UHGV virus genome: UHGV-0343652
Reading direction: 5' to 3' (one strand)
From: a virus
DNA: 13,718 nucleotides
Shown here: positions 1-3,000 of the stretch, piece by piece
Numbering within the stretch: the stretch's first letter is position 1
Layout: each line of letters starts with the position of its first letter
Position numbers: made by a program

Positions 1-3000
1 GCTATCAGAGGAAATCAATAAAGCGCAATAATCCAATCAAACCCGCGATAATGCGGGTTTTTTTGTAATTAATGACTATCATAACGACGCAAGAAAGAGC
101 ATGATTAGCGTGTACATAAAGGTGTACATAATGCCATTTATGTACATCGCTTTATGTACACACCTCTATTCAATGTTTAGGGATGCCTTAATGCCAAAAC
201 TTACAGATATTCAGATCCGTGCCTGGATAAAGGCAGACGAGAGGTTTGACGGCAAAGCTGACGGTAACGGCCTGTATCTCTGCTATCCCAAAAATTACAC
301 AATGCCCTTCTGGCGATTCCGCTATAAGTTTGCTGGCAAACAACGGGCGATGGTTATCGGGTCATATGCAGAGTTATCACTATCCAGAGCCAGAGAAACA
401 GCAAAGGAACTATCCGCTCGCGTCGCACTTGGGTACGACGTAGCAGCGGAGAAACAGGAGCGTAAAGCCGAAGCACTGGCAAAAATGGAGGCAGAAAAAA
501 ACGCCATACGAGTATCAGAGCTTGCTGCCGAATATTTCGAACGTCAGATACTGCCACGATGGAAACATCCCGACATCCTGCGCCGTCGCATCGACAAAGA
601 CATAAACCCGCGTATTGGTCATATGAAGGCTGAGGACGTAAAACCACGACACATTGACGAGATGCTAAAGGCAATTGTTGACCGTGGAGCGCCAACCATT
701 GCAACGGACGTTCTGCGATGGACGCGCCGCATATTCGACTACGGGATAAAACGTCATGTGCTGGAGATTAACCCGTGCTCGGCGTTTGAAGTCTCTGATG
801 CTGGTGGCAAGGAGTCATCCCGCGATCGCTGGCTGACCCGTGAAGAGTTAATCCGGTTCTTTCAGGCCATGCGTACCGCAAAGGGATTCAGCCGACAGAA
901 CGAGCTAACCTTCAAGTTGCTACTGGCGCTTTGCGTCAGGAAGATGGAGTTGTGCGCCGCCAGATGGGAAGAGTTCGACCTTGATAACGCCGTGTGGCAT
1001 TTGCCAGAGGAACGCAGCAAAAACGGCGACCCCATAGATATTCCACTTGTTCCCCCCGTTATTGAATGGCTGAAAGAACTGCGCGTCTTGTCATGCAATA
1101 GCGCGTGGGTACTTCCGGCGCGGAAAATGCAGCACAGGATGATCCCCCACATTCAGGAGAGCACCCTACCCGTTGCACTGGCAAAGGTCCGCGCAGAGAT
1201 GCCGGAGGTTCCAGATTTCACTATTCACGACTTCCGACGTACAGCACGCACACATTTAGCCGCGCTTGGCGTTGATCCGGTAGTCGCTGAAAGATGCCTC
1301 AATCACCGCATCAAGGGAGTCGAGGGCATATACAATCGCTATCAGTATTTCGATGAACGGACTTCGGCGCTGGCGAAATGGACCAATCTGTTAGTGTCGC
1401 TGGAACGCGGGGAACGCTACAACGTGACACCAATCAGAAGGGCCAAAGCATGATTAATATCCTGAAAAAATCGCCAATAGAACGCCTGTGCGCTTCTGTT
1501 TCAATCACTCCGCACGAAATGGCCCTTGCACTAGCTGGCCTTAATCCGTCAATGAGAATAGGCGACGTGCCGCAGGACAAGTTCGAACAGGTCGAATCAG
1601 CCAGAACGATGATAGCCCGTGCTATCTGGTTGCATAGCGGCAAGAAAGCGGGAAAGGATGAGCCATACAGAGCGGGGGATATATTCCTTGCGTCCTTCCC
1701 GTTCATTGAGGCAGGAACGCCAGAGGCAATAATTACGGCGGTAACTGATGCCATTGATGATTTACGAGGAACAAAAAATTGGGAAGAAAAAGCACTTAAT
1801 CTTGGTGGGCGGCGGCTGGTCAGCCACATCAAAGAAACAAGCCGCAGCGGAAGGGGGCAGTACAGGAAACTCGACGAAGAACAGGGAAACATGAAGATGA
1901 TGGGGTTGCTGGTTTTACTGCTCGTGAAGAAATCAGGCACAACCGCATACATTCAGGACGGAGAACCAAACCGTTCAGCCATTTACCGCGACGTGGAAGC
2001 GCTGATGAAGGAGAAAGGGATATCGCCAAAAGGGATCGCCAAATCCACGTTTATGCAAAAAATATCAGCCGCATTACTGGCAGTAAGCCAGGCAGATTAA
2101 CCAGCCAACACGCCCTGTATTCACGGGGCTGTAATCCCCATACATCCCCCACCAGCAAAATTTACTCACCGTTCTTAATCGTTATAAATCGGTATAAACA
2201 GGATTAGCACGTTAAAGACTGGCAAAAGATGGCAAAACATAACAACGCATAACGGCGCAGTAGGAGTATTACGGTATCAGAACGTATACGGCTTCAATGA
2301 CTTATCACCAATAAAGCAAAAACTTTCAAAGTTTTAGCACTCCATCCCGCCTGTTCAATCTTTTACTGGAAGTGTGTTTTTTCAATAGATTTGTGGAAAG
2401 TTTTAATAGATTCCAGATTTGGTGGAATGCTGTACAAACAACCAATAGAATGGAGAAAACATCAACTTTTAACCCAAGAGGGAATCATGACAGCTAACCA
2501 TCAAGAATCTATCCCTACCACGGGCTATATCCGCCGCTGCAACCTGGCTAAGTTGCTTGATACCAGCGTGTCAACTATCGACCGCTGGGTGCGTATCGGC
2601 AAATTACCGAAGCCCACGAAGCTGGGGGAGAAAAACACCGTATTTAATGCGGTGGAGATCAACCACTGGCTGAACGAGCGCCGCAACAACACCAAGCAGT
2701 AATCAGCATGACGGGCGTACAGTTCCGCGCCCGTCAGCACCAAACCTGATTCTACAGCAGGAGTTTTTAATGAAACGTCCGAATATGCCCGTACAGGGGC
2801 AGGGCTTCGTTCAGCCTGAAATCAGCCAGAACGATATATTGATTCGCCACAAAGCGGAGTCGCGTATTGATTCCCGCGTTATTTCTGAGCGAGCAGGAAT
2901 ACAACACGAAAGTATCATTGCGACGATTAAATCTCATCAATCCAGATTGCGCGAGCTTGGCTCACTGCCTCGCCAGTCAGTCAAGGAATTAACCTATTTG

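Follow-up and report, generated by a model that had tools for sequence, protein, structure and literature searches.

Which function does the gene directly downstream of the integrase gene fulfil in a satellite of the P4 type, and how does it relate to the regulator gene that follows? The question is raised by the UHGV virus genome UHGV-0343652, a DNA of 13,718 nucleotides that was analysed over its whole length and is called the window here. The whole 13.7-kb window represents one complete integrative element with its main genes all on the + strand, and by its gene content it is a phage satellite of the P4/phage-inducible chromosomal island (PICI) type from Shiga-toxin Escherichia coli. Its first genes code for a P4-type tyrosine integrase (int), a 216-amino-acid (aa) protein that we call X, and an AlpA-type regulator (alpA) (Table 1). 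A sequence-only reading of this DNA had proposed that X might be a recombination accessory factor or a single-gene defence protein. The comparison of X loci described here points, tentatively, to another role, namely the control of alpA, and the feature that says most about the function of X is an array of direct repeats that lies in front of alpA and co-occurs with X.

Gene X Is Coupled to the Integrase Gene

The ATG of X (1450-1452) overlaps the stop codon TGA of int (1451-1453) within the sequence ATGA (1450-1453), the frame continues to a TAA at 2098-2100, and a purine-rich GAAGGG (1437-1442) is placed 7 nt ahead of the ATG. RefSeq annotates this coding sequence (CDS) in E. coli O145:H28 RM12581 as hypothetical protein WP_000608239.1. 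Compared with the O157:H7 allele, the window shows a ratio of nonsynonymous to synonymous substitution rates (dN/dS) of 0.14 for X and of 0.10 for the integrase. Sequence, RefSeq CDS and dN/dS thus confirm the open reading frame (ORF) and its overlap with int that had been described earlier, and indicate that X is a real gene under purifying selection. Segment 1300-2300 of the window is 99.9% identical to an island of RM12581 at the yicC/dinD insertion site, and O157:H7 and other Shiga-toxin strains carry a 91% variant of this island at the same site.

In 13 of 14 lineages, which are all those with an intact upstream gene, the gene immediately ahead of X codes for a P4-type integrase and has the same orientation; at the remaining X locus the integrase has been lost. 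The 4-nt ATGA overlap of the window recurs in Klebsiella michiganensis, a Chryseobacterium-labelled contig, three Yersinia contigs, and locus L010, and is shared by relatives with just 26-65% protein identity. An overlap of 1 nt is found in the L013 assembly and in vB_KppS-Ant, a 16.5-kb capsid-forming satellite which is the sole phage-database record with an X homologue and which shows the int-X arrangement as well. Gaps of 1-2, 8, or 11 nt separate the two genes in an E. coli ssrA/smpB island (present in 137 of 5426 complete genomes), in ahr-adjacent islands, and in one metagenome contig, and a gap of 98 nt occurs in one metagenome contig. A purine-rich stretch precedes the start codon of X in every relative. 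As overlap or near-abutment is kept across very distant integrases, X is likely co-expressed with the integrase, as the overlap had suggested at first sight. The Chryseobacterium-labelled contig (L004, CACSKA010000004.1) contains an enterobacterial-type yicC island with an integrase 84.5% identical to that of the window, and the genus name probably stems from an assembly that is mixed or mislabelled.

The sequence-only reading had also suggested looking for the int-X pair in islands with different cargo, and there the pair is indeed conserved. It occurs in satellites of P4-like, PICI-like, and capsid-forming architecture and at various attachment sites, among them yicC, ssrA/smpB, and a position beside ahr, which codes for an alcohol dehydrogenase. 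Among X-bearing loci, the integrases are down to 25-30% and the X proteins 21-35% identical to each other. In the ssrA/smpB island L005 (8995-11759), genes for a 390-aa protein on the opposite strand, a 179-aa protein, and a 130-aa protein with an HHH_2 motif are situated between X and alpA, so that cargo can be inserted downstream of X without parting it from int.

X Does Not Appear to Co-evolve Tightly With the Integrase

Such strict adjacency to int, with a start/stop overlap kept across integrase clades, might mean that X is an accessory factor of site-specific recombination, be it architectural, directional, or controlling the activity or stability of Int, which translational coupling would hold at a fixed ratio to Int. 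Its basic C-terminal domain and conserved basic linker, described below, and a purifying selection similar to that on int would suit this proposal, but the divergence of the two proteins does not. Within the yicC clade, integrases are 85-91% identical while X proteins share only 33-35% identity, as in the pair L004 and L010 (Int 91%, X 33%), and between L003 and L004 X (73%) goes with AlpA (85%) and not with Int (62%). By these comparisons, co-evolution of X and Int is not tight, and integrases about 79% identical at the DNA level are present in islands that do not possess X. In addition, the island already encodes an excisionase of the AlpA/Vis type, and in another PICI a fragment consisting of int and attP alone integrates (PMC6092414).

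The DNA sites also follow the integrase. Arm-type repeats (CGTGTACAYAARGGTGTACAYAAT) occur at both ends of the island, with two inverted copies on the left side (6 matches observed versus 0.65 expected), and are common to all yicC-clade islands, with or without X. Since they are present whatever gene follows int, and at both island ends, the GTGTACATAA repeats near int are arm-type sites of the integrase; they were also considered as sites for X and rejected, being found in X-less yicC-clade islands as well. The repeats that are linked to X are those at alpA, at least 900 bp away from the attachment site (att) region. As to the att core, there is no exact direct repeat of at least 10 bp between the two window ends. 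Among excisionases and recombination directionality factors (Xis, AlpA/Vis, and TorI types), X has no match in Pfam or NCBIfam, and with 216 aa it is all-helical in the AlphaFold2 model. A function as recombination accessory factor is therefore disfavoured, and we regard it as the least probable of the readings considered here.

A Slot for a Single Gene Between int and alpA

A related yicC integrase occurs in 553 E. coli genomes, only 90 of which carry X. Five yicC islands without X were inspected, and four of them contain a different co-oriented gene for a protein of 260-321 aa ('family 2') followed by alpA, while the fifth (L022) has a 183-aa gene of another kind, with no alpA annotated within the stretch shown. 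In a blind set of 56 IMG/VR loci (L028-L083), retrieved on AlpA similarity alone, exactly one co-oriented ORF (213-371 aa) is located between int and alpA in 48 of the 48 loci with a visible int, and the distance from the int stop codon to alpA is 858-1241 bp. The proteins encoded in this slot form at least five families unrelated by BLAST; family 2 (260-330 aa) is the commonest occupant (37 of the 56 IMG/VR loci), and at least three further unrelated families exist. The slot looks like a fixed functional position with a fast-changing occupant.

Family 2 proteins have no Pfam match, and they begin with an excisionase-like motif, e.g., LPPLEFCSLDRAAQILECEIDDLWHW (TIGR01764, E 0.012 in one of them). 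Homology between X and family 2 is not detectable by hhalign (probability 0.2%), and the recurrent alignment of the two comprises only a short helix (KL.GLLI.LL versus REKLFKSAIYLLSK) without statistical support. That all slot proteins belong to one fast-evolving superfamily is unsupported, as comparisons of X with P4 cII, family 2, and a third slot family by hhalign give probabilities below 1%. EcCIMP1_002, which lies between int and alpA of a studied PICI, is a different and much smaller protein and was discarded as counterpart of X.

A variable gene next to int recalls P4, where cII follows int and the post-int region is a known defence hotspot (PMC9122126), and X might thus be anti-phage defence or exclusion cargo that is co-expressed with int in quiescence and shields the host or the satellite from competing phages. 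Close islands do differ in their slot gene, with genes of no assigned function in the five X-less islands inspected, and the low identity of X beside well-conserved integrases would be typical of genes in conflict with phages. Of the earlier view of this place as an int-adjacent, variable, often defensive hotspot, the variation between islands holds, but neither the defensive cargo nor a hotspot of the psu-int type is supported. In P4, the psu-int hotspot harbours systems of variable size in either orientation (PMC9122126), and defence genes shift their context; the slot always contains one co-oriented gene instead of a variable number in either orientation, and X is encountered only directly after the integrase and not elsewhere. 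In its organisation, the slot is unlike the P4 hotspot. Furthermore, PADLOC gives no significant match (best E 0.044), the small helical X protein lacks any feature typical of an effector (nuclease, NTPase, TIR, transmembrane, or other), and defence would leave the X-specific repeats at alpA unexplained. A single-gene defence protein, the other function suggested earlier, is therefore an unlikely description of X.

A Repeat Array Upstream of alpA Co-occurs With X

In X loci, X and alpA are separated by an AT-rich spacer of 292-653 bp (40% G+C in the window), compared to about 112 bp between slot gene and alpA in family-2 loci. These spacers contain three to four same-strand repeats of the form TTTTYRA-TGGAA-W, with TAGAT, TAGAA, and TGGAT as variants of the core. 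Their positions are nearly fixed at about -123, -103, -83, and -65 from the ATG of alpA, about 19-21 bp apart, in 11 of 13 X lineages. In the window, the array starts about 270 bp past the stop codon of X and has cores at 2367, 2386, 2394, 2407, 2423, and 2446; those at 2367, 2386, and 2407 are spaced by 19-21 bp and the others irregularly.

Chains of at least three TGGAA cores with a spacing of 17-24 bp are found only upstream of alpA in X loci when both strands of 355 kb of retrieved loci are scanned, and with a relaxed core there is a single exception over the 355 kb. In the blind IMG/VR set, with at least three TGGAA or a chain of at least three cores required, the array is present in 6 of 6 X loci and in 0 of 50 others, although the six come from just two or three lineages, so that a formal probability would overstate their independence. 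AlpA proteins of array-less family-2 loci are 61-75% identical to AlpA of X loci and have the same predicted recognition stretch, whereas among X loci themselves AlpA identity goes down to 17-30%. By these comparisons, the array tracks neither the AlpA nor the Int clade. That the repeats are autoregulatory sites of AlpA was therefore rejected as main explanation, since near-identical AlpA proteins occur without arrays. Sites for integration host factor (IHF) were considered too, but only the TAGAT variants resemble the IHF consensus and, as judged by eye, the TGGAA core falls into its unspecified part.

The most divergent X lineages, L005 and L011, have other repeats in the same place, namely three copies of TTTTYTATCCGGRC in L005 and three of CTTTCACTG in L011. 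Such changed repeats fit a co-variation of X and its repeats; they are no proof alone, because the AlpA proteins of these two lineages differ from the rest as well.

In 8-9 of 10 lineages, the promoter-proximal repeat is located 17-18 bp upstream of a TAnnnT hexamer that ends 34-39 nt ahead of the alpA ATG, and in the window the core at 2423 sits 17 nt upstream of the -10-like TAGAAT (2446-2451). This spacing would place the proximal repeat in the -35 position of a predicted weak alpA promoter.

The repeats might also be sites for a host or helper protein that were merely co-inherited with X, while X itself acts on the helper phage or the host by protein contacts, for example in interference, in an anti-repressor-like manner, or in takeover. 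P2 Cox activates P4 PLL, a case in which a helper protein binds direct repeats upstream of the P4 vis promoter, and it would agree with this explanation that no DNA-binding fold was detected in X and that both of its domains diverge rapidly. On the other hand, the repeat core is shared across very different architectures that probably depend on different helpers (P4-like with Ogr/Delta, capsid-forming, and PICI-like with Q), and satellites with nearly the same AlpA and another slot gene do not have the repeats. A factor that works by protein contacts with co-inherited repeats thus seems quite improbable to us.

The X Protein Family

X matches PHROG 30524, a family of unknown function, with an E value of 1.9e-31 (residues 11-209 aligned to positions 14-213 of 220), and searches with Pfam, NCBIfam, and PADLOC profiles gave no significant match, so that the earlier statement that X has no recognisable motif holds for these three collections and not for PHROG. 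In PADLOC-DB 2.0, the single match is C3a146 'DNA binding HTH' (helix-turn-helix), insignificant at E 0.044 and 11.7 bits. The family is small: at 90% identity it forms 19 clusters in a set of 5.8 billion proteins, and at 50% identity it has 35 representatives in a set of 1.84 billion; a profile of diverse X members gave 68 matches, and an alignment of close X members scanned against genomes only two loci. Full-length members have 206-241 aa, and those with a named source are all from Enterobacterales (E. coli, Klebsiella, Yersinia, Serratia, Buttiauxella, and others).

AlphaFold2 predicts X to be all-helical (predicted local distance difference test, pLDDT, 85.9; predicted template modelling score, pTM, 0.58). 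In the model, an N-terminal domain spanning about residues 1-130 is joined by a linker of low confidence to a C-terminal part of three helices, and this part, modelled separately, reaches a pLDDT of 89.5 and a pTM of 0.73. Conserved stretches are I-T-x-x-E-M-A-L-A-L-x-G-L-N-P in the N-terminal region, T-P-E at residue 90, the basic linker S-G-R-G-x-H-R-K-x-D-E with an invariant G136 and a nearly invariant R135, the hydrophobic helix K-L-x-G-L-L-I-x-L-L, and the C-terminal I-S-x-K-G-x-x-K-S-T-F-x-x-K. At long range, the C-terminal half is 35-45% identical and the N-terminal half 20-30%, and the net charge of the C-terminal domain is +2 to +7 throughout the family while the N-terminal part is about neutral.

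The X family has neither a characterised relative nor a fold match. At E <0.001, Foldseek retrieved nothing from PDB or BFVD with the full model and nothing from PDB with the C-terminal domain, and comparison to sequence profiles of PDB entries yielded Sar (E 0.44), a designed protein (E 1.7), and nothing better. When 24 aligned members were compared to Pfam, sub-threshold matches were scattered, and the few to HTH families (E 0.01-0.2) came from single members and were discounted as evidence; one member matched Phage_AlpA with E 0.024 over 24 residues only. An impression that the C-terminus resembles the 'arm plus HTH' of Hin/resolvase DNA-binding domains was dropped, because fold searches gave no match.

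X as a Candidate Regulator of alpA

Since X always occurs with the integrase and always with repeats at alpA, it is more probably a new regulator of the alpA switch than a defence gene. AlpA is the master regulator and activator of Gram-negative PICIs and is required for excision (PMC6092414, PMC11773190). The explanation that we prefer, and to which we would assign a probability of roughly 40%, is that X is a satellite-specific regulator in an int-X-alpA module which acts on the alpA promoter through the repeats. X and the integrase would both be translated from the int transcript, and X would bind the phased direct repeats, probably by its basic C-terminal domain and the SGRGxHRK linker; the better conservation of the C-terminal half and its always net basic charge speak for this. 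With the proximal repeat at the -35 position, X might set the activity of alpA, the switch that takes the satellite out of quiescence and into excision and replication. Response to a signal, most plausibly a product of the helper phage, would fall to the fast-evolving N-terminal domain. DNA binding by X, a participation of the repeats in the alpA promoter, and the existence of a signal are what we infer from the arrangement of the locus.

Two modes of action come into question. Joint expression with int during quiescence would suit a repressor, and as coupling to int would put X in the maintenance transcript, by the same logic as in the P2-like and Stl systems compared below, it argues for a repressor with a variable, helper-responsive N-terminal domain. 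An activator role fits direct repeats replacing a weak -35, and the second regulator beside alpA that PIME1 elements need for excision points in this direction, too.

Several points weigh against a regulator of alpA. Neither Pfam and NCBIfam searches nor Foldseek searches with the full model and the C-terminal domain recognised an HTH or another DNA-binding fold in X. Gene and repeats could simply be inherited as one block in which a host or helper factor binds the repeats, and the alpA promoter is a prediction based on hexamers alone. Both L005 and L011 are X lineages without the canonical repeat. As the island already has RNA immunity of the P4 type with two C4/CI-like RNAs, a protein repressor is not obviously needed. 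Most related satellites do not possess X, so that its job would be done there by other proteins or not at all.

A more general possibility, which we consider rather unlikely, is that the slot families, at least five in number and unrelated, are the missing helper-sensing regulators of Gram-negative satellites, each linking detection of the helper to alpA. In that case, X would be the first member of this group whose DNA target, the TGGAA repeats, can be identified, and its fold would be one not seen in solved structures.

Comparison With Known Regulatory Systems

Stl, the master repressor of staphylococcal pathogenicity islands (SaPIs), is a parallel in some respects. It is established (see also PMC6092414) that Stl is adjacent to int and cotranscribed with it, controls the promoter of the induction genes from the adjacent intergenic region, diverges extremely between islands with similar integrases, and has a domain that senses helper-phage proteins; the first and third of these properties are like those of X, and the second and fourth resemble what is proposed for X and for its N-terminal domain. 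However, Stl has a recognisable N-terminal HTH, as would be expected of a Stl/CI-like repressor, whereas in X no HTH family exceeds the threshold and no fold match exists. Stl also precedes int and is divergent from the operon that it regulates; X comes after int and points the same way as alpA. There is no sequence or fold similarity found between the two proteins, and repression by X is only proposed. With regard to operators of the Stl/CI kind, a comparison of sequences reveals that phased repeats co-occur with X and differ in its most divergent subfamily.

Maintenance regulator and integrase are expressed from one transcript in P2 (C-int) and in 186 (cI-int). In these P2-like operons the regulator comes first and is a small HTH repressor, whereas X comes second and has no homology to it. 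P4 cII (sce7726 family) occupies the same position as X, being the first co-oriented gene 3' of a P4-type integrase. Nevertheless, hhalign gives a probability of 0.24% for X and P4 cII, and NF033832 (sce7726) recognises P4 cII with E 2.5e-44 and no member of the X family; the P4 cII region belongs to the variable psu-int hotspot and is not followed by alpA, whereas the X slot precedes alpA.

In PIME1 integrative mobilizable elements, excision and replication require AlpA and also a LuxR-family regulator located in the int-alpA region (bioRxiv 10.64898/2026.01.12.698999). As is proposed for X, this is a second regulator near alpA in an element with int and alpA, and it offers a precedent for the role proposed here, but it is divergently oriented, belongs to a known HTH family, and shows no homology to X, and PIME1 elements are mobilised by conjugative plasmids instead of phages. 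Activators of the PhoB/OmpR type and lambda CII use same-strand repeats that extend into the -35 with a weak -10, as in the array of X, which is the arrangement to be expected if X were an activator. In those cases, repeats have a period of 10-11 bp versus about 20 bp in the array and proteins have winged-helix or other known folds, unlike X, so that the likeness is one of geometry only.

A second regulator that gates the master switch of a satellite, as proposed for X, is a role of a known kind. In the literature, we found no description of the X protein, of the one-gene slot, or of the repeats, and how helper phages activate alpA was left unexplained in PMC6092414 and PMC11773190. If X and other slot proteins gate the alpA promoter, they would decide on excision, replication, and spread of their islands, and X would add a DNA-binding fold without known relatives. 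This is of interest as such satellites are common in pathogenic E. coli; that of the window, found in Shiga-toxin strains, brings along a Q antiterminator and regulators of the PerC family. X and its repeats, one protein and one 100-bp DNA fragment, offer a simple and testable entry point.

Other Features of the Element

Coordinates of the features discussed are collected in Table 1. The palindrome GCAAAAACTTTCAAAGTTTTAGC ahead of the array is conserved in the O157 allele and not conserved in L003 (a Klebsiella relative) or L004.

Table 1. Features of the window and, in the last row, of four related loci.
Feature	Position	Strand	Basis or remark
Integrase arm-type repeats GTGTACATAA, two direct and two inverted copies	109..161		int promoter/attL-proximal region
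P4-type tyrosine integrase, 420 aa, first gene of the int-X pair	191..1453	+	Pfam Arm-DNA-bind_3, Phage_int_M, Phage_integrase; RefSeq CDS in RM12581
Coupling junction, GAAGGG Shine-Dalgarno-like site and ATGA	1437..1453	+	Sequence
Gene X, 216 aa	1450..2100	+	Translation; PHROG 30524; homologue searches; AlphaFold2 models; dN/dS
Palindrome GCAAAAACTTTCAAAGTTTTAGC, 23 bp	2316..2338		Repeat search; ~30 bp ahead of the array's first repeat
Same-strand repeat array, consensus TTTTYRA-T(G/A)GA(A/T)-W	2359..2451	+	Sequence, repeat scans
alpA-type HTH regulator/excisionase, presumed regulatory target	2487..2702	+	Pfam HTH_17, Phage_AlpA; RefSeq CDS
Rha-family gene and AntA fragment	after alpA	+	
Two C4 (P4 CI-like) antisense immunity RNAs	4672-4759; 5153-5240	+	Rfam RF01695, 70.3 and 72.9 bits
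D5_N/P4-type primase	6277-8100	+	
Single-stranded DNA-binding protein (SSB), ProQ/FinO protein, PerC-family genes	among window genes		
ProQ/FinO-domain protein	9058-9525		Overlaps the first of the three PerC-family ORFs
Three PerC-family ORFs	9485-9787; 10709-11011; C-terminal part of 10716-11180		
128-aa gene, no assigned function	10238-10624		Opposite strand to the PerC-family/ProQ cargo
Phage Q antiterminator	12175-12573	+	Pfam E 2.5e-50
Second arm-type repeat pair, two copies of GTGTACACAA	13495..13518	+	Near the right end of the island
Family 2 members	L018 7356-8321; L020 4876-5799; L021 4811-5593; L023 4941-5789		

The first of the two C4 RNAs falls within a mechanically called ORF of 507 aa (3482-5005), of which only a fragment corresponding to the N-terminus of AntA, labelled a pseudogene in RefSeq, is genuinely coding. 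The Q antiterminator is a homologue carried by a satellite of Shiga-toxin-producing E. coli, and cross-talk with the late transcription of a lambdoid (Stx) prophage is conceivable.

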